From a virus (Duplodnaviria > Caudoviricetes), in the IMG/VR virus record IMGVR_UViG_3300033070_001537, positions 2,296 through 66,295 of that record: a stretch of DNA of 64,000 nt. One strand, written 5' to 3'. Below, one piece after another: positions 2,337 to 21,044 of this stretch. The number at the start of each line of letters is the position of its first letter. Position 1 is the stretch's first letter. The notes below the pieces were generated by a model. The model was given only the letters and a program-made list of their open reading frames with translations. It made no database searches and was not told where the DNA came from. The position numbers and the translations under genes are program-made.

Positions 2337-2774
2337 ATGACCTCCCTTCGTCGTCCCCGTGTCTTTCTGCTGGCACAGCCGTCTGTCTCTCGACGCGGAG
2401 AGCTTCCGGATCTTCGCCCGCTGGGCGAATTCGGCGATGTGACGGTGATCGTGACCGGCGACATGAATCCGATGCGCTACCCCGCCCGCACGGCGACAGC
2501 CATCGAGGATAAGCTGCACGATTTTGACCCCGAGGTCGACTATTTGGTCGCCGCCGGGGGTGCGACGTTGGCCGCGCTGGTCATTGGATTGGTGCTCGGA
2601 CAGATGGGGATCGAGCAATTCCAGTGGCTGAGCTTCCAACGCGGTATCGACGCGGAGGGACGGCGCGTCAACGAGGGCGGATACTACCGCCCCGTCCGTC
2701 TCGACTTCGGACAGATTGAGCTGCTCGAAGACGAAGCAGGTGACCCCAACGAAGAGGACACAGATGAGCAGTAA
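2337..2774 (+). CDS. conserved hypothetical phage protein
   Basis: ATG 2337 after a pyrimidine-rich leader; the ORF-track extension to 2109 runs through the non-coding repeat. Confidence 0.7.
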   Translation: MTSLRRPRVFLLAQPSVSRRGELPDLRPLGEFGDVTVIVTGDMNPMRYPARTATAIEDKLHDFDPEVDYLVAAGGATLAALVIGLVLGQMGIEQFQWLSFQRGIDAEGRRVNEGGYYRPVRLDFGQIELLEDEAGDPNEEDTDEQ

Positions 2775-3396
2775 CAACGACGAGATGGACGGCGGCGTCG
2801 ACCCGGTCTTGGCCGCCATGCTCGCCAACGACGCTGAGGAGATTGCTGCCGCAGCCCCCGTGGTCAGCTTGCAAGCGGTCCAGCAAGCCGCCCGCGCGAT
2901 GCACGAGGCACAGGTTGCCGTCGCTGAGGCCGAAAAGGACCTCAAGACGAAGAAGGAGGCGCTCCGCATCCTTGAGGAGGTGCGGCTGCCTGAACTCATG
3001 GACACGGCCGGTGTGTCGTCCGTCTCCACGCCCGACGGACTCGTGGTAACGATCGAGTCCTTCATGTCCGCGTCCATCACAGAGGCCAAGCGCCCGTTCG
3101 TGGTGCAGTGGCTCAAGGACACGGAGAACGACGAGCTCGTGAAGCCTGAGCTGCACATGGTCTTCAGCAAGGGCGAGCTCGCGGAGGCGCAGCGGATCGC
3201 GGCCGAGATGAGTACCGCGCTGGGCCGACCGGTGGAAGTCTTAGAGGCGGTCAACACGACGTCCTTCAAGGCGCTCATCGCCGAGCTCCGCCGTGAGTCG
3301 CCTGACATGTCGCTTCCGCTGGACGAGCTTGGCGTCTACATCGGCCGCAAGGCGAAGATCAAGACGTCCAAAGCGCCCAAGAACGCCCTCGCGTAG
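2764..3396 (+). CDS. coiled-coil replication-module protein typical of SSB-adjacent phage genes
   Basis: N-terminal coiled coil then LPELMDTAGVSSVSTPDGLVVTI...VQWLKD; position directly before the SSB-like gene. Confidence 0.6.
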   Translation: MSSNNDEMDGGVDPVLAAMLANDAEEIAAAAPVVSLQAVQQAARAMHEAQVAVAEAEKDLKTKKEALRILEEVRLPELMDTAGVSSVSTPDGLVVTIESFMSASITEAKRPFVVQWLKDTENDELVKPELHMVFSKGELAEAQRIAAEMSTALGRPVEVLEAVNTTSFKALIAELRRESPDMSLPLDELGVYIGRKAKIKTSKAPKNALA

Positions 3397-3430
3397 TCTC
3401 CCACTTCCAACACCTTCCAGGATCTGTTCC

Positions 3431-4309
3431 GTGGCTGAATCCAAAGCATCAACCAAAACCGACGTCGCAACGACCACCAAAGCGCCCGCCGCGGTGCTGC
3501 CCGACGGCGTCGACATTGCCGCCCTTGTCGGCGACGCTAGCGAGTTTGGGCAGTCGTTCGAGAAGAGCGATCTCGCGACGCCGTTCCTTCGCGTGCTCCA
3601 GCAACTATCTCCGCAGCTTCAGAAGCAGAAGCCGGAGTATATCGCCGGTGCCGAGCAGGGCGATTTCTTCCTCACGGGCTCGTCCCGTGTGATTCCGGGC
3701 GCAGAGGGCGTGGTGCTCATTCCCGTGCACTATGAAAAGTCGCACACCGAGTGGAAGCCCAAGCGCGGCGGCTTCGTGGCCGATCACGGGCCCGTGTTCG
3801 ACGTCGACCGCGAGGCGTCGTGGGATGAAGAGCGCAACACCTTCGTCCTGCGCAACGGCAACGAACTCGCCGTCGGCATGCTGTACTATGTGTTCGTCGT
3901 GGACGCAGAAACGGGGTCCTATGAGCCCGCTGCGTTCATCTTGAGCGGCTCGCAAATGAAGAAGGGCCGTAAGTGGAACGCGATGATGCGCAGCTTCCAG
4001 CTCAAGGGCCCGAAGGGCTACTTCACGCCGCCGTCGTTTTTCCTGTCGTACCACGTTACCACGGTGCCGGAGCAGAACGACGCCGGCAGCTGGTACGGCG
4101 TCAGCATCAAGTCCGGCAAGTTCACGCACCAGCTGCCCGACGGCCCGGATCTGTACGAGCGGGCGAAGGAGCTCTACCGCAACGTGCAGTCCGGGGTTGT
4201 GAAGGCGGCGGTGGATGCGCTCGACACCACAGAGAAAGCGACCGACGACGGTCCGCTGCCTGACCTGCCCGAGTCGGACGGGTCCTTCGGAGAAGATCGC
4301 GCCTTCTGA
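3431..4309 (+). CDS. putative single-stranded DNA-binding protein
   Basis: DLATPFLRVLQQLSPQ...YIAGAEQGDFF segment typical of this phage SSB family; acidic C-terminal tail ending in Phe (DDGPLPDLPESDGSFGEDRAF); located before the primase. Confidence 0.65.
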   Translation: MAESKASTKTDVATTTKAPAAVLPDGVDIAALVGDASEFGQSFEKSDLATPFLRVLQQLSPQLQKQKPEYIAGAEQGDFFLTGSSRVIPGAEGVVLIPVHYEKSHTEWKPKRGGFVADHGPVFDVDREASWDEERNTFVLRNGNELAVGMLYYVFVVDAETGSYEPAAFILSGSQMKKGRKWNAMMRSFQLKGPKGYFTPPSFFLSYHVTTVPEQNDAGSWYGVSIKSGKFTHQLPDGPDLYERAKELYRNVQSGVVKAAVDALDTTEKATDDGPLPDLPESDGSFGEDRAF

Positions 4310-10805: not shown

Positions 10806-11161
10806 TGCCGACTGTCTTGCTCCTGTCTGTCACGCCGCCTGACACCTCGTCCGTCCTTGCGCTGACGTCCGCGGTCAAAGCGCATCAGCTGCTCAAGCAT
10901 ATCAATACAGCGTCGACGCGCGATACCGCGACGAGCCGCGCGCTCGTGAGCGAGATGAGCGATATTCTGAAGCATGCAGACCTCATTCGCGCGTGGGCAC
11001 GATGCGAGCGGCTGACCGTATTTGAGACAGCTGACTTGTCGGACCCTGACATCCAACGGCGGATCTGTCGCGAGTTGCTGGAGTCGGCGGTCTTCGCGAC
11101 GCCTCGACGCGACCCGCCGCCTCCCGAAACTTCGGCTTGCGTGATTGCCGAGCCCGTGTAA
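10805..11161 (+). CDS. hypothetical protein
   Basis: TGATG coupling with upstream gene. Confidence 0.55.
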   Translation: MPTVLLLSVTPPDTSSVLALTSAVKAHQLLKHINTASTRDTATSRALVSEMSDILKHADLIRAWARCERLTVFETADLSDPDIQRRICRELLESAVFATPRRDPPPPETSACVIAEPV

Positions 11162-11165
11162 TACT
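11137..11165 (+). promoter_or_regulatory. sigma70-like promoter of the 7-deazaguanine operon
   Basis: TTGCGT-N17-AATACT followed by two CAACGA motifs, as at other promoters in the window. Confidence 0.5.
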
Positions 11166-11207
11166 GTGCGCTCCCCAACGACGTCCTCGCTCATCAACGA
11201 CTCTGCT

Positions 11208-11951
11208 ATGTCTCCCCAACCCAAGCCCCCTCGGACCGCCGCTGTGCGGCCGTCCCCTGAGCTCCTGTCCGCGTTCGAGTCTCTCAACCGGACGGTCCCT
11301 TCTATCACGAGACTGATGAGTACCTCTCGGGTATTGCCTCCTGACGCCTCGCCGCCCGGGCGTATCATGCAGCCCACGCGGGCGGACGCCTGCACCGCCG
11401 TCGAGACCTTGCTGCGGTACCTGGGCGAGGATCCGGAGCGGGAAGGCCTCCGTGAGACGCCGTCACGCTTCGTCGCTGCCATGGAGGCCTACACGGCGGG
11501 CATGGCGCTGACGCCGGACAAGATTCTCAAGACGTTTGCCGACGGGGCGGAGGGCACGAATGAGCTCGTTATCGTGCACAACATCCCCTTCCTGTCCATT
11601 TGCGAGCATCACCTCGCGCCCGTGACAGGCATCGCCCACGTCGGCTACATCCCCTCGGGCAAGATTGTCGGACTGTCGAAGCTCGCTCGACTGACGAACA
11701 TCTTCGCCCGCCGTCTGCAGGTGCAAGAGCGAGCGACGCAGCAGATCGCGGACGCCTTGGTCGAGCACCTGCAGCCGGTCGGCGTCGGCGTCCTTGTGCG
11801 CGCGGCGCACGGGTGCATGTCGCACCGTGGTGTCATGATCCACGGGTCCGTCACTACCACCTCAGCCATGCGTGGCGCCTTGCTCGAAGAGCCGGCGGCG
11901 CGGGCTGAATTTCTCGCGCTTTGTCGCGATGGAGAACGCTCGCATGGCTGA
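11208..11951 (+). CDS. folE: GTP cyclohydrolase I
   Basis: GEDPEREGLRETPSRF, FLSICEHHL, GLSKLARL, RRLQVQER, AAHGCMSHRGV; start at 11208 or 11367. Confidence 0.95.
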   Translation: MSPQPKPPRTAAVRPSPELLSAFESLNRTVPSITRLMSTSRVLPPDASPPGRIMQPTRADACTAVETLLRYLGEDPEREGLRETPSRFVAAMEAYTAGMALTPDKILKTFADGAEGTNELVIVHNIPFLSICEHHLAPVTGIAHVGYIPSGKIVGLSKLARLTNIFARRLQVQERATQQIADALVEHLQPVGVGVLVRAAHGCMSHRGVMIHGSVTTTSAMRGALLEEPAARAEFLALCRDGERSHG

Positions 11952-12270
11952 AGGAACCGACGCGCCGGAGACGCAGGTGCACATTCCGGCCGCAGTGACA
12001 CCGAAGATCATGGTGGAGTTCGAAGGAGAGCCGGACGGCGATCCCGTGCTGATCGAGCTCGCCGACGTGTCGATGGTGCTGTCTCGCCCGCCCTCGCCCA
12101 ACGGCATGGGCACGGGCTTGGTCTTGCGGGGCGGCGGCATGATCATCGTCCGCCCGTCTTATCGCGACATCCTGCGGATCCTGGACGCCCACAAGGTGCA
12201 GATCTTCCGCGCCATCACGATCCGCGCGTCGATGGACGGCATCATCGATCCGCCGAGGATCGTGCAGTGA
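11944..12270 (+). CDS. hypothetical protein inside the 7-deazaguanine operon
   Basis: Overlaps folE stop and queD start; no recognisable motif. Confidence 0.65.
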   Translation: MAEGTDAPETQVHIPAAVTPKIMVEFEGEPDGDPVLIELADVSMVLSRPPSPNGMGTGLVLRGGGMIIVRPSYRDILRILDAHKVQIFRAITIRASMDGIIDPPRIVQ

Positions 12271-12791
12271 GCACCGTCATCACGCGCAAGATGGAGATCG
12301 ACATGGGCCACCGCGTGCCACGGCATGCGGGCAAGTGTGCGAATCTCCACGGTCATCGGTACGTCATCGAAGTGGAAGTGAGCGGTGTCGTGCACGGCGG
12401 CGGCACGTCCGAAGAGGGCATGGTGATGGATTTTGGCAAGATGAAGTCCATCATGCACGACGTCATCGACGGGTGTTTCGACCACACCATGTGCCTCGGC
12501 GTCGACGATCCGTTCTTGGACGGTGTCTCGTCTGCGCACATTCGTCAAATCACACCGACGATTCCGTCGTTGCAGGCCGTTGGCGGCCGTCGGTTTCACT
12601 TCCACAACATCGGGACCGTCGTCGTGCTGCCCGAGGTGCCGACGGCGGAAAACCTCGCGTCGGTGTGGTACCGCATGCTCCGCCCGACACTGAGCGACAT
12701 CAACATCGACCTCAAAGCGGTCACCGTGTACGAGACCCCGAATTGCTGGGCGACGTACCGCGACCTGAACCAGCCGGAGACCGAGGCATGA
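12267..12791 (+). CDS. queD: 6-carboxytetrahydropterin synthase
   Basis: MGHRV..H.GKCANLHGHRY, FDHT, PTAENLA, VTVYETPN. Confidence 0.93.
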   Translation: MSTVITRKMEIDMGHRVPRHAGKCANLHGHRYVIEVEVSGVVHGGGTSEEGMVMDFGKMKSIMHDVIDGCFDHTMCLGVDDPFLDGVSSAHIRQITPTIPSLQAVGGRRFHFHNIGTVVVLPEVPTAENLASVWYRMLRPTLSDINIDLKAVTVYETPNCWATYRDLNQPETEA

Positions 12792-13615
12792 GTACCGACA
12801 TCGTCATCCGCCCGATCCTGCGCAGCGAGGTTGAAGCCGTGCAATCGGTGTTCAACCACAAGGACGTCATCGCGGGGTTGGGCGGCTTTACCATGACCGA
12901 CACGGTCAAGAACGCCGCCTTCGGCAATCGCCCTGGGCTGCTCGCGGCATGGGACGGTACGACACCGGTCGGTGCGATTATGGTCGGTGGCCGCCCGCAG
13001 GTACATCTCCTGAAGTACGGCAGCGTGGGCGTCCTGCCCGAGTACCGCCGCCGTCGCATCAGCACGGCGCTCTATTTCGGCCTGACGTTGCAGGGCATCC
13101 TGGAGGGCCGTCGCCTGTTCGAGGACACGATTGTCGGCGACAACGCGGCCCAGCAAGTCGCCCTGCCGACGATGGGCTTGTCGTTGGCGGGCACGTTGCG
13201 CCACCGTACCGCGAGCGCCAAGTCCATCCTCCTGTATCAACTGTCGCTGGTCGCGAACGTGCCGTCCGACTACCGGGCCTCGCTGGGGCTGGACGTGGTG
13301 GCGCCGTTCATTTGCATGTACGATCGGGTGGTGACGTCGAAGTATCGATTCCACTATTTCTTGGACGACAACGCCATCACGCGCGATTGGTACGTCAAGA
13401 ACAAGGAGATCGTCGACAAACATCCCGCCGAGCTCAAGGCGGCTTGGGAAGACGCCGAAGACACGCGGTCCGCGATGCGGGCGGACACGGTGTCAGGCAT
13501 GAGCGTCACCGTCGTCAAGGATCGCGAGATCGCCGCGGCCCCGCAGCGGGGCCAAAAGAAGCCGGCAGCCCAAGAGCTGTCGTTCTTCGACGCGCCCACT
13601 GAGGAAGCCCTGTGA
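12788..13615 (+). CDS. GNAT-family N-acetyltransferase-like protein with C-terminal extension
   Basis: [10 protein letters not shown] (beta1), [31 protein letters not shown] (acetyl-CoA-binding motif A, with Arg where Gly is usual), DNAAQ (motif B Asn); coupled to queD and queC. Confidence 0.7.
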
Positions 13616-14478
13616 CACATCCGTTTCGTATCCCGCCGCTTCGGAGCTCCTCGCCTGCCCTCGTGGTATTGAGCGGCGGGCAGGACTCGACCTTTTGCGC
13701 CGCGCTCGCCAGTTTGAAGCACGAGAAGGTCTATGCCGTCACGTTCAACTACAATCAGCGGCACGACCGCGAGATTGAGGCAGCACGGAACGTCGCAGAC
13801 TTGCTTGACCTTGACGGGCACGAGGTCGTGACGCTCGGACCCATTCTGGAGAGCACGTCGCCGCTCACCGACATGCGTCAGACGCTCGAGCAGTATGACA
13901 ACGCGAAGGAGATGAGCGAGATCATCGGCGACCGCGTCGAGCTGACGTTTGTGCCGATGCGGAACACCTTGTTTCTCACCATCGCTGCCAACCGCGCCGT
14001 GGCGCGGAGGGCTGGCCAGATCTACACCGGTGTCTGCCAGGAAGACGGCACCAATTATCCGGACTGCACGGACGACTTTATCGCCCGCATGGAGGGGTTG
14101 ATCGATGAGTCGCTTGGCAATCAGGCGGACTACATCCAGGTCGACGCTCCGTTGCTGCACTTCACCAAGGCGCAGATGATCCTCGAAGCGGCGCGTCTGG
14201 AGCTCGAGCACGGCATCCGGATCATGCGCGCGTGGGCGTACAGCCACACGGCGTACGACGGCGCCTATCCACCCACTGGCAAGGACCACGCCACGGTGCT
14301 GCGAGCTGCGGGGTTCGAAGCGGCAGGCTGGCCCGACCCGCTCGTCCTGCGGGCGCATCTGGCAGGTCTGTGGCCCGAGCTGCCGGAGACATCAAACTAC
14401 GCCGGTATCGAGCCGAAACTCTCGGTCTGGGGAGCCTACCTTGCGGGCCGTGTTCCCTTGACGCGGGTGCTCGGATGA
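13612..14478 (+). CDS. queC: 7-cyano-7-deazaguanine synthase
   Basis: [46 protein letters not shown]. Confidence 0.95.
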
Positions 14479-15188
14479 TGGACGCCCGGCGGGACAGCGT
14501 GAACCGCATCGTCACAGTCTACCTGGCGTTGTTTGCCGTGGTGCCGTTCCGATACTCGCCCACGGCGTGGCGGGGCGAGACAGAAGAGCCCACGACAGTG
14601 ACGCCACAGCCGTGTATCGTGTCGCCGGGCATTCTGCGCGGCTTCACCTGCCCCGCTATGTGCGGCGCCTGTTGCAAGTCGTTCACGATGGACTGGCTGC
14701 CGTACGAGACAATGCCGCACAATCCGCGGCGGATCAAACTGCGGACATTCATGATCAACGGGCGCGACGTCCCCGTGTTCACAGACGCCCAGGCAGGCAA
14801 CGACACGGGATACTGCCGGTACCTCCGGCACGAAGACGGGCGGTGCGGCATTCACGGCACGCACCCGATGCCGTGCGACTTCGAGCTGATTCGTCCGTTG
14901 ATGAGTCACATCGAGGCACGCCCGAACCGCGTGACCACGAAGCTCTTCGGACGCGGTCACCAGCTGATGCGTGTCGTCGACCAGACGCGCGGCGCCTTGT
15001 GCACCGTGAACGGCATCACAGACGACACTATCGACGACACCATCCGTCGGCTCAACCGCTTGCAGGCGTGGGCAGACCATTGCCGCGTCATCACCCACAT
15101 TCCCACCGTCGTTGCATGGGCAAAGGACCCGGCTCGCCGTACTGAGCCGCTGCACCTCGCCCCGGACCCTCTTCCCCCACTCTCATGA
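14475..15188 (+). CDS. Cys-cluster (YkgJ-like, CxxxCxxCC) putative Fe-S/Zn protein
   Basis: CPAMCGACC ... [20 protein letters not shown]; coupled between queC and queF. Confidence 0.7.
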
Positions 15189-15697
15189 CCGCTCCTGTAC
15201 ATGAAGCCTCCGCCGGACTCACGGCGCTGGGCAGCGACACGACGTATGAGTACGCTATGCCTCGCCCCACGATTCTCGAGACGTTTCTCGTCCCCCAACT
15301 CGCCGTAGGCTCGGGCATGACGTCTCTGGTGCTGATCTCCGCGCCCGAATTCACGTCGCTGTGCCCCAAGACAGGACAGCCGGACTTCGCGAACATCATC
15401 ATCGAGTACCTGCCGCGGGAATACTGCGTCGAGTCCAAGAGCCTCAAGCTGTACCTCGGTGCCTACCGTCAACACCGCGGATTTCATGAAGAGTGCGTCG
15501 CGCAGATCCTACGTGACCTTCGGGATGTTGTCGATCCGTTGTGGATCGCGGTGCAGGGCCGTTTCACACCTCGCGGCGGCATCCCGTTCTGGCCGCTGTC
15601 GGTATGGTCGTCTCCGTACCTCACGCCCGACTCTCGATATCAGGTGCAGCACATGAGCCGCCTCCTGCGCGGTGACGTGCCTGTGGCGCCGAGGTAA
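15185..15697 (+). CDS. queF: NADPH-dependent preQ0 reductase (type I QueF)
   Basis: EFTSLCPKTGQPDF, QueF motif ESKSLKLY, HE, FTPRGGI. Confidence 0.92.
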   Translation: MTAPVHEASAGLTALGSDTTYEYAMPRPTILETFLVPQLAVGSGMTSLVLISAPEFTSLCPKTGQPDFANIIIEYLPREYCVESKSLKLYLGAYRQHRGFHEECVAQILRDLRDVVDPLWIAVQGRFTPRGGIPFWPLSVWSSPYLTPDSRYQVQHMSRLLRGDVPVAPR

Positions 15698-15703
15698 CGG
15701 TAG

Positions 15704-16648
15704 GTGAACATCTTCTTCTCAGGCATCGGCGGCAAGGACATGGAGCTCGATCCGCGCCTCGCCGGGCGGAAGCGGTACCGGCTCCTGTCCTGCCACGGTG
15801 CTTATCAGCGGTCGGCGTACGACATCAGCCGGGAGTGCCTCTCGGCGGGCGACCCAGTAGAGTTCATGTACGACTCCGGCGCCTTCACGGCGTGGAGCCG
15901 CGGGGAAGAAGTCCACCTGGACGACCTCTTGCGCGTCTACGCCGACCTGATCAAGGAGTTCGGCGCCGCGGCCGACAACATCTGGCTCATCAACCTCGAC
16001 AAGATTCCTGGGTCCAAGGGCCGCACCGCCACGCCTGCGGAGCTCGACGAGGCCATTGAGATCTCCGATAAGAACTACGCCATTCTGGTCAAGGAATTCG
16101 GGCCGCGGGTCCTGCCTGTTTTCCACCAGAACGAAGACGAGCGTCGCCTCCGTCAGGTGTACGACATGGCAGAATTCATCTGCGTGTCGCCACGGAACGA
16201 CTTGCCAGAAGGCGATCGCATGACGTGGTCGCAGGAGACGCACCGCCTCCTGTCCGCCTACGGCACACCGCGGCGGACGCACGGCCTCGCCGCCACGGGC
16301 TGGCGCATGATGCACCGCGTGCCGTGGTGGTCGGTGGACTCGGCGACCTGGGTCATCCTTGGCGCCAACGGCGCGATCTTCACCGACACGCGCCTCAAGA
16401 TCGTGCAGATCAGCGCCTTGAGCGGGGCGCGGAAGGACGCCGACAACCACTTCCGCACCATGGCTCCTGTCGTGCAGGAGACGCTGGCGGCGCAGATTGC
16501 TGCCCGCGGATTTACCGTGGAAGAACTCGAAGAAGACTTCCGCGCCCGCATGCTGTACAACCGTGTCGTCCTCAACGAGTCCGCTGATGTCGCCGCACAG
16601 TCGACTCGTCACAACGAAGTGCACGTCCCCTCCCTCTTCGGACTATGA
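15704..16648 (+). CDS. dpdA: DNA guanine transglycosylase (TGT-like DpdA)
   Basis: DSGAFTAW, NLDKIPG, PVFH, HGLAAT, PWWSVDSATW; sits in the preQ operon. Confidence 0.82.
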   Translation: MNIFFSGIGGKDMELDPRLAGRKRYRLLSCHGAYQRSAYDISRECLSAGDPVEFMYDSGAFTAWSRGEEVHLDDLLRVYADLIKEFGAAADNIWLINLDKIPGSKGRTATPAELDEAIEISDKNYAILVKEFGPRVLPVFHQNEDERRLRQVYDMAEFICVSPRNDLPEGDRMTWSQETHRLLSAYGTPRRTHGLAATGWRMMHRVPWWSVDSATWVILGANGAIFTDTRLKIVQISALSGARKDADNHFRTMAPVVQETLAAQIAARGFTVEELEEDFRARMLYNRVVLNESADVAAQSTRHNEVHVPSLFGL

Positions 16649-16884: not shown

Positions 16885-17090
16885 GCCTCTCTCCTGACGC
16901 GGACCGTGTTTTGAACGGTCTCTTACAAAACCAGAAAGAGCTCGCCGAGCTGCTCAAGGAAGCCCGTAAACTGAACCTAGAGACCACGCTTCATTTCTTC
17001 TATGAAAACCTCTACCAGCCCGATACACGGCTTGACGTGTCCAAAGCCTTCGTAGGGGTCCCCTCTATTCGACTGGTCCTCTCCTCATGA
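16881..17090 (+). CDS. small hypothetical protein
   Basis: ATGA coupling on both sides. Confidence 0.55.
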   Translation: MSLSPDADRVLNGLLQNQKELAELLKEARKLNLETTLHFFYENLYQPDTRLDVSKAFVGVPSIRLVLSS

Positions 17091-18118
17091 AGTCCTACCT
17101 CTCCATTCTGCGCCGCGTCCGCGGCGCCGTCAGCACACGGGACCTGGTTCCGGTGCTCACCCACTTTCACTTCTACGGCGGCCGCGTGCAGGGCACGAAC
17201 GGCCACATTACCGTGGACTCGGTGCTGCCTGGCTCGAAACTGGACGGCACCGTGCCGGCGGAGCGGTTCATCAAAGTCCTGGACCGCTGCACGGACGAGA
17301 TCACACTGTCGCAAGACGCGCACCACCTGACAGTGAAGTCCGGGCGCTTCAAGGCCAAGATCGCATTCAGCCAGGACCCGTTTCCGCTCATGCGGAACCT
17401 CGCGGTGGACGGCGGCGTGCCGTTTACGTTCTCGCCTGCCATGTGGCTGGCGGTGCAGACCATTCAGCCCTTCATCGGCACGGACGCCTCGCGCCCGTGG
17501 TCGTGCTCGGCGTTGATCCGCGGCGCCTACGTCTACGCCACGAACAACGTGGTCTTGGTGCGCTCGCTGTGGGCCGGCGTGCCGTCCATGGTGCCGGAAG
17601 GCATGTCGGACGTGATGTTGCCCGAGACGCTGATCGACGAGATGGCGCGGCACCCGGAGCCTATTTCGGGTGCGCTCGTAAGCGAGAATGCGCTCCAAAT
17701 CGATTATCGCGATCCGGGCAGCACTGAGCCGGCGTTCTGGATTCGCGCCGTGAGAAACAACGAGAGCTGGCCCAACGTTGCGCCGATGTTCGCGGTGCTG
17801 GACGGGCTTGAGTTGCCCGAGGTTCCGGACGGGCTGCACACCGCGGTGGAGACGGTGGCGCCGTTCTGCGTCGACGTCAAGCTGCCCGTGGTCCGCTTCG
17901 GGCCCGGCGGCGTGTCCACGATGGAAGGCGACCACATGGCGTCCATCGAAGGCTTCGACCTGCCTGAAGCCGCGTTCCTCGCTCCGCATCTGTTGCCCGC
18001 GCTCGAGCTGGCGACCCACGTCGACTTCTCCCCGTTCCCCGGCCCGTGCCCGTTCTGGCAGCTCTCCGACCTCGGCACGAAGCACATCGAAGGTCTCATC
18101 GTCGGAGTTCGCATATGA
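17087..18118 (+). CDS. DNA polymerase III beta (sliding clamp)-like protein
   Basis: 343 aa; AVSTRDLVPVLTHF..GTNG..TVPAERFIKVL..LTVKSGRFKAKI..FP resembles the DnaN N-terminal domain. Confidence 0.75.
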   Translation: MKSYLSILRRVRGAVSTRDLVPVLTHFHFYGGRVQGTNGHITVDSVLPGSKLDGTVPAERFIKVLDRCTDEITLSQDAHHLTVKSGRFKAKIAFSQDPFPLMRNLAVDGGVPFTFSPAMWLAVQTIQPFIGTDASRPWSCSALIRGAYVYATNNVVLVRSLWAGVPSMVPEGMSDVMLPETLIDEMARHPEPISGALVSENALQIDYRDPGSTEPAFWIRAVRNNESWPNVAPMFAVLDGLELPEVPDGLHTAVETVAPFCVDVKLPVVRFGPGGVSTMEGDHMASIEGFDLPEAAFLAPHLLPALELATHVDFSPFPGPCPFWQLSDLGTKHIEGLIVGVRI

Positions 18119-18834
18119 AAACAACGATACCAGTGAGCGAGATCTTCCTCGCCGTGCAGGGCGAGGGCATGCAGATCGGACGCCCGACCGTATTTGTCCG
18201 AACAGGCGGGTGCGACTTCCGCTGTTCGTGGTGTGATTCGATGTACGCCGTGGACCCGAAGCACAAGGCGGAATGGAAGCCGATGACGCCGACGGAGATC
18301 CTGGACACAATCGACACGATCACGGGCGGCACGCCTATCCTCATCACGTTGAGCGGCGGCAATCCCGCGATCCATAACTTCGCGGACTTCTGCGTCTTGG
18401 CTAAGCGACGCGGCCATACGCTGACGATGGAGACGCAGGGTTCGAAGTTCGCGGTCTGGATGAACCAGCTGGACTTCCTGTGCCTGTCTCCCAAGCCGCC
18501 CAGCAGCGGGATGGAGAACAAGTTCAATCCCGTCGAGTTCGAGAAGTGTCTCAGCACCGGCTTCCCGTCGCTGTCGGTGAAGATCGTCGTGTTCGACGAG
18601 ACGGATCTGGCATGGGCGCTGGACGTTTTCAAGACGTGCCCGTCCGGGTATGCGCGTCTCTACCTGCAGGCCGGCAACAACGACGTCCACACGGCGGATC
18701 AAAACGACGCGGTATTGGGTGCGTTGACAAGTTACGCCTGGTTGGAGCGTCAGGTTCTGAAGCGAAAGCTCTTCCACGTCACCGTGCTGCCTCAGCTGCA
18801 CGTCCTCGTCCACGGCAACAAACGCGGAGTCTGA
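18115..18834 (+). CDS. queE: 7-carboxy-7-deazaguanine synthase (radical SAM)
   Basis: EIFLAVQGEG, FVRTGGCDFRCSWCDS, TLSGGNPA, METQG, SPKPPSS, PQLH. Confidence 0.95.
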   Translation: MKTTIPVSEIFLAVQGEGMQIGRPTVFVRTGGCDFRCSWCDSMYAVDPKHKAEWKPMTPTEILDTIDTITGGTPILITLSGGNPAIHNFADFCVLAKRRGHTLTMETQGSKFAVWMNQLDFLCLSPKPPSSGMENKFNPVEFEKCLSTGFPSLSVKIVVFDETDLAWALDVFKTCPSGYARLYLQAGNNDVHTADQNDAVLGALTSYAWLERQVLKRKLFHVTVLPQLHVLVHGNKRGV

Positions 18835-18839
18835 ACGCC

Positions 18840-19061
18840 ATGATCACGTCGAAGGAAGACATCGAAGACGTTTTCTCCTACCACGCCCCGACCACCGAGC
18901 AGCTGGAAGCCCTGCAGGCGGTACGGATCAAAGCGAAGGAGTTCGCCGAGGTGATCCTGCACTACGCTCCGCACTCGGCGGACCGTTCCGTCGCGTTCCG
19001 GTACCTGCGGGAGTGCGTCATGACCGCGAACGCCTCCATCGTCCTCGAAGGGCGACAGTAG
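18840..19061 (+). CDS. Acb2/Tad1-like helical hairpin protein (candidate cyclic-nucleotide sponge)
   Basis: FSYHAPTTEQ...IKAKEFAEVI...SADRSVAFRYLRECVMTANASI resembles the FTYHAP...SREKSLA..KLEEAVMWANA family. Confidence 0.6.
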   Translation: MITSKEDIEDVFSYHAPTTEQLEALQAVRIKAKEFAEVILHYAPHSADRSVAFRYLRECVMTANASIVLEGRQ

Positions 19062-21044
19062 ATGGCGCGCATCGACGCGATCGGCGTGTTCTGGACCGAC
19101 ATGCCCAAGCTGCCGCCCAAGAAGGGCGACGGCTCTATCGCGTCAAACGGAGCGAGCCGGGCGGCGGTGGTCCGACGCGGGCCGCCGCCTGAGAGCGACT
19201 GGACGCCGCCTGAACATTTTCCTGAGTTAGACGGCGTCTGGTCCGTGGACGTGGAGACGCGCGACCCGCACATCATGAAGATGGGCCCGGGCTGGGCGTT
19301 CCGGGACCGCGCCGAGTACGGCGAGGTGGTTGGCATTGCGGCGAGCTGGGACGAGGGACGCGGGGCCGGCTACTGGCCGATCGGGCATGCGGTGGGGCTG
19401 CCGTACGACGGCCACAACGTCGACCCGGAGCCGGTGTGGCGGTGGCTGCGGGCGCAGATGCGGAAGCCCGCCTCCACCGTCGTGATGCACAACGCCCTGT
19501 ATGACTGGGGCTGGATCGAGCACGGGCACGGCATCGACGTCTTCGCGAAGGTCGAAGATACTATGACGTACGCCTGTCTCTTGGACGAGCACCGACGGTC
19601 GTACAAACTCGACGCCCTGTCCAAGACGTACCTGGACGAGGGCAAGGACGAGACACTTCTGCGCCGTGCAGCGGAACACTACGGCGTGGACCCGAAGTCC
19701 GGGCTGTGGCGCTTGCCGTCTGAGTACGTCGGGCCGTATGCCACCGCGGACGCCCGACAGACGCTTCGCCTCCGCCATGTGCTGGCGCCGAAGATCGTCG
19801 AGAGCCGTCTGACGGACATCTTCCGCCTGGAGACGGATCTGTTGCCCGTCCTCCTGGAGATGCGACGCGTCGGCGTACCTATCGACACGGACCGCGCGTC
19901 GCAGCTTGACGCCGCCTGGCAGACGATCGAGAACGAGCACCTGGACAAGCTGCGTCAGCTGTGCGGGCGCGGGGTCGATGTGTGGAGCAACGACGCCCTG
20001 GAGGCAATCTACACCGCGGCGAAGATTGAGTTTCCGCGCACCGCCAACGGCACGGCGAGCTTCACCAAAGGGTGGCTCGCTCAGCGGGACGACGCCGTCA
20101 GCGCATCGATCATGGAAGTCCGCCGTCGGAGCAAGGCGCGCGGGACCTTCCTGCAGAACGCCATCCTGGGGCACACCGTGGACGGTCGCATCCACGGCAA
20201 TTTCAATCCGCTCCGCAGCGACGACACGGGCACGATCAGTGGGCGCTTCAGCAGCACCTCGCCCAACCTCCAGCAGGTGCCGGCGCGAGACGAGGAAATC
20301 GGGCCCGACGTGCGCTCGTGCTTCGTGCCCGAAGCGGGGCACGAGTGGGCGGCGCTTGACTTTTCGCAACAGGAGCCGCGGCTCACGGTGCACTACGCTG
20401 TGAAGATCGCGGCCCGCGGCGCCATGTCCGCGGCAGAGGAGTACCGCACCAACCCGCGCACCGACTTCCACGATTACGTGTCGTCCATCACGGGACAGCC
20501 GCGGAAGAAGGCCAAAGGCATCAATCTCGGTCTCATCTACGGCATGCAGGAGCTCACCCTGTGCCGGCACGTCGGGCTGCCCACGGAGTTCGTCAACGTG
20601 CGAGGCGAACAGCGAGAGATCCCCGGGCCTGAGGCCCGTGAGCTCTTCTGCACGTATCACGACCGCCTGCCGTTTGTGTCCATCCTGAGCGAGGAATGCC
20701 AGGCGCGCGGCAAGAAGTACGGACATCTCCGCACCATCGGCGGACGGCTCGTTCGCTTCCCGCGCGGGCAGAAGCTGCATGCGGCGCTGAACCGACTCAT
20801 CCAGTCCTCTGCCGCCGACTGGACCAAGCGGGCTATGGTCGACCTGTACCGCGACGTCGGCGTGGTCCCACATGTGACGGTGCACGACGAGCTCGGATTT
20901 AGCGTCCTGCCCGACGATAACTACCGCACCGCCCGTCGGTACGCCGAGGTGATGGCGAACTGCATGGCGTGTGAGGTGCCTATGTTGGTAGACATCGAAG
21001 TAGGCCGCAGCTGGGGCCACGCGACGGAGAAAGTGATCGGATGA
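19062..21044 (+). CDS. polA: family A DNA polymerase with 3'-5' exonuclease
   Basis: Exo motifs DVET, HNALYD, YATAD; Pol motifs DFSQQEPR, RKKAKGINLGLIYG, TVHDEL. Confidence 0.96.
   Translation: MARIDAIGVFWTDMPKLPPKKGDGSIASNGASRAAVVRRGPPPESDWTPPEHFPELDGVWSVDVETRDPHIMKMGPGWAFRDRAEYGEVVGIAASWDEGRGAGYWPIGHAVGLPYDGHNVDPEPVWRWLRAQMRKPASTVVMHNALYDWGWIEHGHGIDVFAKVEDTMTYACLLDEHRRSYKLDALSKTYLDEGKDETLLRRAAEHYGVDPKSGLWRLPSEYVGPYATADARQTLRLRHVLAPKIVESRLTDIFRLETDLLPVLLEMRRVGVPIDTDRASQLDAAWQTIENEHLDKLRQLCGRGVDVWSNDALEAIYTAAKIEFPRTANGTASFTKGWLAQRDDAVSASIMEVRRRSKARGTFLQNAILGHTVDGRIHGNFNPLRSDDTGTISGRFSSTSPNLQQVPARDEEIGPDVRSCFVPEAGHEWAALDFSQQEPRLTVHYAVKIAARGAMSAAEEYRTNPRTDFHDYVSSITGQPRKKAKGINLGLIYGMQELTLCRHVGLPTEFVNVRGEQREIPGPEARELFCTYHDRLPFVSILSEECQARGKKYGHLRTIGGRLVRFPRGQKLHAALNRLIQSSAADWTKRAMVDLYRDVGVVPHVTVHDELGFSVLPDDNYRTARRYAEVMANCMACEVPMLVDIEVGRSWGHATEKVIG

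Follow-up and report, generated by a model that had tools for sequence, protein, structure and literature searches.

A divergent DpdM orthologue, predicted to methylate preQ1, in a deazaguanine gene cluster of an uncultivated phage

The pathway logic of preQ1 incorporation is established: preQ0 is synthesised, QueF reduces it to preQ1, and DpdA inserts preQ1 in DNA. In phages that also encode DpdM, the methylated base mdPreQ1 has been found, and the dpdM and dpdA2 genes of the Vibrio phage VH7D together yield mdPreQ1 in E. coli (Cui et al. 2023, NAR 51:9214, PMC10516641); the activity data for DpdM are in vivo only. From AlphaFold models the same authors derived two pockets of four cysteines each in DpdM, and they described its fold as unlike that of known nucleic-acid methylases (Cui et al. 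2023, PMC10516641). As a working model, the closest mechanistic precedent we found is FliB, the flagellin lysine N-methyltransferase of Salmonella, which needs an oxygen-sensitive [4Fe-4S] cluster for SAM-dependent methylation of lysine epsilon-amines; FliB has eight conserved cysteines, and its N-terminal Cx4Cx3CC motif holds the cluster (PMC8598068). The protein described below is likewise Cys-rich with eight conserved cysteines, and the substrate of FliB is a primary alkyl amine, but FliB differs from DpdM in motif spacing, size, protein substrate and its oligomeric, membrane-associated state. Because no sequence similarity was detected (no match of our protein to the FliB model NF038110 at E <= 10), the analogy is mechanistic only and implies no family assignment.

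The gene studied here lies in an IMG/VR viral record of 66,295 bp, of which the 64 kb that were analysed are called the window; the GC content is 63% and nearly all genes are on the same strand. The ORF at 14475-15188 (Table 1) is a genuine gene rather than a motif that arose by chance: its GC3 of 0.82 is like that of adjacent genes, its match to the Pfam family PF03692 passes the cut-off, and it has more than 140 homologues in which eight cysteines are invariant throughout. Since the homologue alignments begin at residue 2-7 of the protein, the start at 14475 is favoured over an upstream GTG at 14232. The original prediction had drawn attention to the ORF through a CPAMCGACC motif followed by three later cysteines, and these are indeed present, at residues 59-67 and then as C114 (GYCRYL), C124 (DGRCGIH) and C134 (PMPCD). 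Its list omitted an eighth family-invariant cysteine, C176 (GALCTV), and also the two unconserved cysteines C47 and C203. The proposed coupling to queC and queF could be confirmed at both junctions: the start ATG at 14475 overlaps the queC stop by 4 nt (ATGA), and the stop at 15186-15188 overlaps the queF ATG at 15185, again by 4 nt.

Table 1. Positions in the window of dpdM, its cysteine codons and the neighbouring deazaguanine genes
Feature	Position	Strand	Remarks
folE (GTP cyclohydrolase I; start position uncertain)	11145..11951	+	Pfam 6.4e-64
queD	12267..12791	+	Pfam PTPS 1.2e-33
GNAT-fold N-acyltransferase, C-terminal helical extension	12788..13615	+	overlaps queD and queC by 4 nt each
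queC (preQ0 synthase)	13612..14478	+	Pfam QueC 4e-46
dpdM orthologue, YkgJ-like cysteine-cluster protein, predicted (d)preQ1 N-methyltransferase	14475..15188	+	237 aa (P0001)
CxxxCxxCC motif, C59, C63, C66, C67	14649..14675	+	invariant across 60 relatives
Later invariant Cys codons C114 (14814-16), C124 (14844-46), C134 (14874-76), C176 (15000-02)	14814..15002	+	
queF (preQ0 to preQ1 reductase)	15185..15697	+	Pfam QueF 4.7e-29
dpdA-type DNA guanine transglycosylase	15704..16648	+	phrog_887, 9.7e-44
queE (radical-SAM CDG synthase)	18115..18834	+	Pfam Radical_SAM/Fer4_12

Pfam and PHROG matches give the gene order folE, ORF 11872-12270, queD, GNAT, queC, dpdM, queF, dpdA, two small ORFs, sliding clamp, queE, a small ORF and polA. 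The full FolE/QueD/QueE/QueC set is thus encoded in the window, with queF and dpdA directly downstream of dpdM, and alignment shows that the catalytic-Cys and ESKSLKLY motifs of queF are conserved. A scan of the operon for promoters and terminators gave no signal above that of shuffled sequences. The ORF at 11872-12270 (132 aa, high GC3) between folE and queD overlaps the annotated end of folE by 80 nt. PHROGs gave no match to it, and tblastn of other deazaguanine loci no homologue. Further downstream, the order sliding clamp, QueE, small ORF and DNA polymerase I (window 17087-21044) is common to the window and Pseudanabaena phage Pan1 (L004), while the polymerase itself has at most 39% identity to any GenBank phage PolA, its best matches being in Pseudomonas siphophages. 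Megablast of 10 kb around dpdM against GenBank phages returned no match, and there is therefore no close cultivated relative; in contrast to the phages of the named DpdMs, this one is uncultivated, has 63% GC and is known here from sequence alone.

We searched 50,697 GenBank phage records by tblastn and matched 27, comprising Cellulophaga phiSM-like phages, Vibrio schizo-T4-like phages (VH7D, phi-ST2, phi-Grn1, ValKK3 and others), Mycobacterium phage Knocker and Pseudanabaena phage Pan1. The matches include one inside phiSM CEPG_00054, a gene named DpdM, and others inside the VH7D, phi-ST2 and phi-Grn1 homologues; pairwise E-values are 2e-33 against phiSM CEPG_00054 and 5e-27 against VH7D DpdM. 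These named DpdMs (phiSM CEPG_00054 / PhiSM_gp53 and those of VH7D, phi-ST2 and phi-Grn1) are homologous to the window protein over its whole length, carry the CxxxCxxCC motif and four later cysteines with the same 10-residue spacing, and have the same predicted fold; moreover, dpdM stands beside queF and dpdA in phiSM as it does in the window. A family HMM made from 59 relatives, with the window protein excluded, scores it at 241 bits, compared with 170 for phiSM, 175 for VH7D and 287-349 for the core family. Among PHROGs it matches phrog_16018 (6e-25) and phrog_21666, whereas a search of NCBIfam found no family and a sequence search of the PDB gave nothing at E <= 1. Of 1.84 billion cluster representatives, a profile search retrieved 520 with E <= 1e-3, and 221 remained at 1e-30, which puts the family at about 520 clusters of 50% identity. 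So few matches mark DpdM as a small family, distinct from the cellular PF03692 family, which is very large. Taken together, the comparisons support the assignment of ORF 14475-15188 as a putative divergent orthologue of DpdM, the dPreQ1 N-methyltransferase family of Cui et al. 2023 (PMC10516641). Of the identities that the original prediction had entertained, the DpdM-type one is thus upheld, by whole-length homology to named DpdMs and also by the retention of both four-Cys pockets, a shared fold and the linkage of relatives to QueF/DpdA clusters, as set out below.

Identity to the named DpdMs is only 24-39%, and the window protein differs from them by a loop after the N-terminal helix that is 13 residues longer, by two extra cysteines, and by 11 substitutions at otherwise conserved columns. 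Among 60 relatives none deviates more: it differs at 11 of 64 conserved columns, where the median is 3, and the substitutions include W162H, S133P, L47C and F203C. The extra cysteines C47 (14613-14615) and C203 (15081-15083) stand in place of Leu and Phe, the residues of 92% of relatives at these columns, and H162 replaces a Trp found in 93% of relatives. Because every invariant residue is kept, we see no sign of decay. A maximum-likelihood tree of 64-70 family members is star-like and places the window DpdM on a long unsupported branch, so that no subfamily assignment is possible. The closest relatives in isolate phages are Mycobacterium phage Knocker gp4 (41%) and Pseudanabaena phage Pan1 gp55 (37%), both uncharacterised and either unnamed or called 'YkgJ family cysteine cluster protein'; they lie in the same cluster context, but, unlike the window, without a GNAT gene. 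In three family members (P0178, P0284 and P0229) DpdM and DpdA are found in a single long reading frame, which in one of the three takes in a sliding clamp as well. The genes may truly be fused, but gene calling may also have merged neighbours in phages that reassign a stop codon, and because of this second possibility the three are not counted as evidence.

The eight cysteines are invariant both in a five-protein alignment and in 60 metagenomic relatives. C59, C63, C66 and C67 align with C34, C38, C41 and C42 of phiSM and with C45, C49, C52 and C53 of VH7D, and in alignment all eight map one-to-one onto the two DpdM pockets of Cui et al. 2023. From this we infer that C59, C63, C66 and C176 would form pocket 1, and C67, C114, C124 and C134 pocket 2. 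An AlphaFold2 model, computed from a 60-sequence alignment, has a pLDDT of 92.2 and a pTM of 0.88 and folds the 237 residues into short hairpins and helices. Three viral models in BFVD match it, with TM-scores of 0.74-0.90 and E-values of 1e-16 to 1e-24 (a fourth match has E 0.3); to judge from their lengths (214, 304 and 217 aa) and identities, these would be Knocker gp4, a Vibrio-phage DpdM and phiSM DpdM. The profile and structure comparison with DpdM that had been put forward as a check therefore returned both the homology and DpdM-like folds. Foldseek against the PDB yielded nothing below E 0.3, and a Foldseek-independent VIA scan of 48,161 PDB chains gave a best Z of 2.5 and nothing credible. 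For the predicted model, these searches agree with the published claim of a unique fold, which is agreement rather than proof of a new fold.

Relatives of the gene are closely tied to preQ1 genes in viruses. QueF lies within 8 kb in 21 of the 31 IMG/VR viral DpdM loci (one of which is VH7D itself), most of them also with FolE, QueC and DpdA, and the common order is FolE-DpdM-QueF-DpdA. Where QueF is not nearby, the four records of 69-100% completeness all encode QueF, together with a phrog_887 DpdA, in another part of the record; the other records are fragments or gave borderline matches only. A pattern scan of 185,579 species genomes turned up seven DpdM-like loci. Two are adjoined by DpdA or FolE/QueF; the other five (L039-L042 and L045) lie in genomes without a phage-type DpdA, next to transposases or hypothetical genes. 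Homologues unlinked to preQ1 genes, which the original prediction had named as grounds against itself, are thus represented by these five orphan bacterial copies only. The orphan genes, from five genomes or MAGs, have 36-43% identity, and the one in a Meiothermus MAG is 1.6 kb from a B12-dependent methionine synthase. Viewed from the other side, DpdM occurs within 10 kb in only 10 of 80 viral QueF loci, and for this reason appears to be an optional add-on rather than part of the core preQ1 pathway.

On this basis we think it probable that the ORF encodes a divergent DpdM which, within a translationally coupled operon, methylates the side-chain amine of preQ1 and so gives rise to mdPreQ1 in the phage DNA; homology, conserved cysteines, fold and linkage come from the present analysis, and the chemistry from the literature. 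In the proposed scheme, FolE, QueD, QueE and QueC would make preQ0, which QueF would convert to preQ1 with its free aminomethyl group; DpdA would swap guanine in phage DNA for preQ1, and DpdM would methylate the side-chain amine to give 7-(methylamino)methyl-7-deazaguanine (mdPreQ1). Part of the G positions of the phage would then carry a bulkier base, resistant to restriction enzymes. The eight cysteines would provide two four-Cys metal sites, pocket 1 for an Fe-S cluster or another metal and pocket 2 for a second metal. If FliB is a guide, an Fe-S cluster probably occupies one of the sites and serves to transfer the methyl group from SAM to a primary alkyl amine.

Published quantities bear on the product of DpdM. 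In phiSM and Vibrio phages mdPreQ1 amounts to only about 5% of dPreQ1 (PMC10516641). When DpdM is present with DpdA2 in E. coli, dPreQ1 falls from 2765-3666 to 0-97 per 10^6 nt, and mdPreQ1 reaches only 9-40 (PMC10516641, Table 2). Judged from that table, more than 97% of dPreQ1 is lost with DpdM and less than 2% is recovered as mdPreQ1, a poor mass balance; the available portions of Cui et al. 2023 (PMC10516641) contain no discussion of the gap that we could find. Methylation of the free base, with the methylated base then poorly inserted, would account for these figures no less well than methylation on DNA, and they also leave room for a product that escaped detection.

The neighbouring GNAT gene bears on the same question. 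Its product has a true GNAT fold over residues 1-155, followed by a helical C-terminal extension, and its family numbers about 50 proteins, of which the closest relatives (P0122-P0124) are 56-60% identical; no relative was found in the 50,697 GenBank phage records. The family occurs in seven lineages of 28-63% GC, represented by viral and metagenome contigs (L047-L057 and L140-L152), and all seven encode DpdM or a DpdM-like protein. In six of them a DpdM or DpdM-like ORF, with CxxxCxxCC and four later cysteines, lies 0.1-4.6 kb away, usually with QueF beside the GNAT gene, and one 40-kb contig repeats the window order GNAT-queC-dpdM-queF. The seventh is a jumbo phage with a complete record of 236 kb, in which a canonical DpdM (E 1.7e-76) and QueF are encoded away from the GNAT gene. 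Such co-occurrence in seven of seven lineages is unlikely to be due to chance, the base rate of DpdM among QueF loci being only about 13%, although the samples are small, partly related and limited to contigs long enough to be judged. The GNAT-linked DpdMs do not form one clade, since they need four changes on the maximum-likelihood tree. In three related lineages the GNAT-linked DpdM-like proteins (L047:4557-5249, L049:10202-10891 and L051:12497-13183) retain CxxxCxxCC and four later cysteines, with the GRCGIH and CDFE motifs replaced; having these replacements and scoring only 58-63 bits against the canonical HMM, they may represent a distinct subfamily.

Since the GNAT family was found only inside the set of DpdM-bearing phages, its product may act with or after DpdM; the original prediction had the two acting together, an idea to which this distribution lends comparative support. 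N-acylation has a precedent in fdPreQ1, made by an enzyme that likewise acts on the side-chain amine of preQ1; this enzyme has an unrelated fold and bears on the GNAT rather than on the dpdM ORF. It is conceivable, though we would not call it probable, that DpdM and the GNAT form a conserved two-step module, in which methylation of the preQ1 side-chain amine by DpdM would leave a secondary amine for the GNAT to acylate, for example to 7-(N-acetyl-N-methylaminomethyl)-7-deazaguanine (+56 Da over dPreQ1), or in which the pair would make some other, unseen preQ1 derivative. A different derivative of this kind, if real, would also explain the poor mass balance of DpdM alone.

A rival reading holds that the protein is a DpdM-family enzyme for which N-methylation is not the main reaction: mdPreQ1 would be a minor product or an intermediate, and DpdM would here work with the GNAT towards a different preQ1 derivative, the real end product, which standard nucleoside LC-MS panels would have missed. 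The sub-stoichiometric mdPreQ1 in every phage measured and the more than 97% fall in dPreQ1 against a return of less than 2% as mdPreQ1 in E. coli (PMC10516641, the latter in Table 2) speak for it, as do the confinement of the GNAT family, among the contigs examined, to DpdM-bearing phages and the loss of GRCGIH and CDFE from some GNAT-linked DpdM-like proteins that keep all eight cysteines. However, the identification of mdPreQ1 relied on a synthetic standard, and the base was seen only with dpdM present (PMC10516641), and the low yield in E. coli may reflect nothing more than an oxygen-sensitive cluster. The GNAT is, moreover, missing from all 31 viral DpdM loci as well as from the isolates (and from all 80 QueF loci), and the window is alone in having it among the 35 canonical DpdM loci examined; as most DpdM loci are without a GNAT, DpdM must have a stand-alone role. 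We consider this reading unlikely, and N-methylation of the preQ1 side-chain amine remains the chemistry that we assign to the window DpdM as its probable activity.

The likeness to YkgJ raises the question of whether the protein has any role in base modification. The original prediction had called the overall cysteine pattern YkgJ-like, and this description holds, the protein passing PF03692 (CxxCxxCC) at 29.3 bits against a cut-off of 23 (31 bits in the genome search), with a match that covers residues 59-135 and seven of the eight cysteines. It might then be a generic YkgJ-type metal-binding protein, such as a redox or chaperone helper, and PF03692 is indeed widespread in cells (present in 10 of 14 control cellular genomes), while five bacterial genomes have a DpdM-like gene without a phage-type DpdA. 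E. coli YkgJ, which has no known function, is however a protein of 109 aa with CxxCxxCC, less than half the 237 aa of the window DpdM with its CxxxCxxCC, and is without the N- and C-terminal helices of DpdM. An hhalign comparison of the window DpdM family with E. coli YkgJ gave a probability of just 11%, which also makes YkgJ unusable as an outgroup for the tree. The DpdM subfamily is small and discrete, as its 520 representatives among 1.84 billion attest, is nearly always found in deazaguanine clusters, and is translationally coupled to one in the window. A generic helper function is accordingly very improbable, and we retain the assignment to DpdM.

The CxxxCxxC spacing itself, which the original prediction had equated with the radical-SAM motif and which Cui et al. 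2023 (PMC10516641) also pointed out as radical-SAM-like, stands as a motif (C59-x3-C63-x2-C66 is the classical spacing), but the protein is without a radical-SAM profile match. PF04055, Fer4_12 and other radical-SAM profiles gave no match at E <= 1, unlike the QueE of the same phage, which matches PF04055 and Fer4_12, and on these grounds a canonical radical-SAM identity was rejected. That the protein should be a canonical radical-SAM enzyme, in which a [4Fe-4S] cluster on CxxxCxxC would cleave SAM and the resulting 5'-deoxyadenosyl radical would drive C-H chemistry on the deazaguanine, is hardly credible despite the classical spacing and the radical character discussed for FliB (PMC8598068), given also that the 237-aa model is made up of short hairpins and helices, that its fold matches include no solved radical-SAM structure (an absence that does not by itself exclude the fold), and that the fourth invariant cysteine, C176, is predicted to share the CxxxCxxC pocket, where it would occupy the iron that binds SAM.

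DpdM emerges as a small, discrete and almost purely viral family that is present in about one in eight QueF-type phage clusters, as befits an optional tailoring step. With eight strictly conserved cysteines and a fold absent from the PDB, it is a good target for structural and mechanistic work. The family itself has been known since 2023, and the window dpdM alone extends it to a new, high-GC, uncultivated phage; what is new here is the proposed coupling of DpdM and the GNAT, which predicts a further hypermodification of 7-deazaguanine and hints at a two-step DNA base modification so far undescribed.
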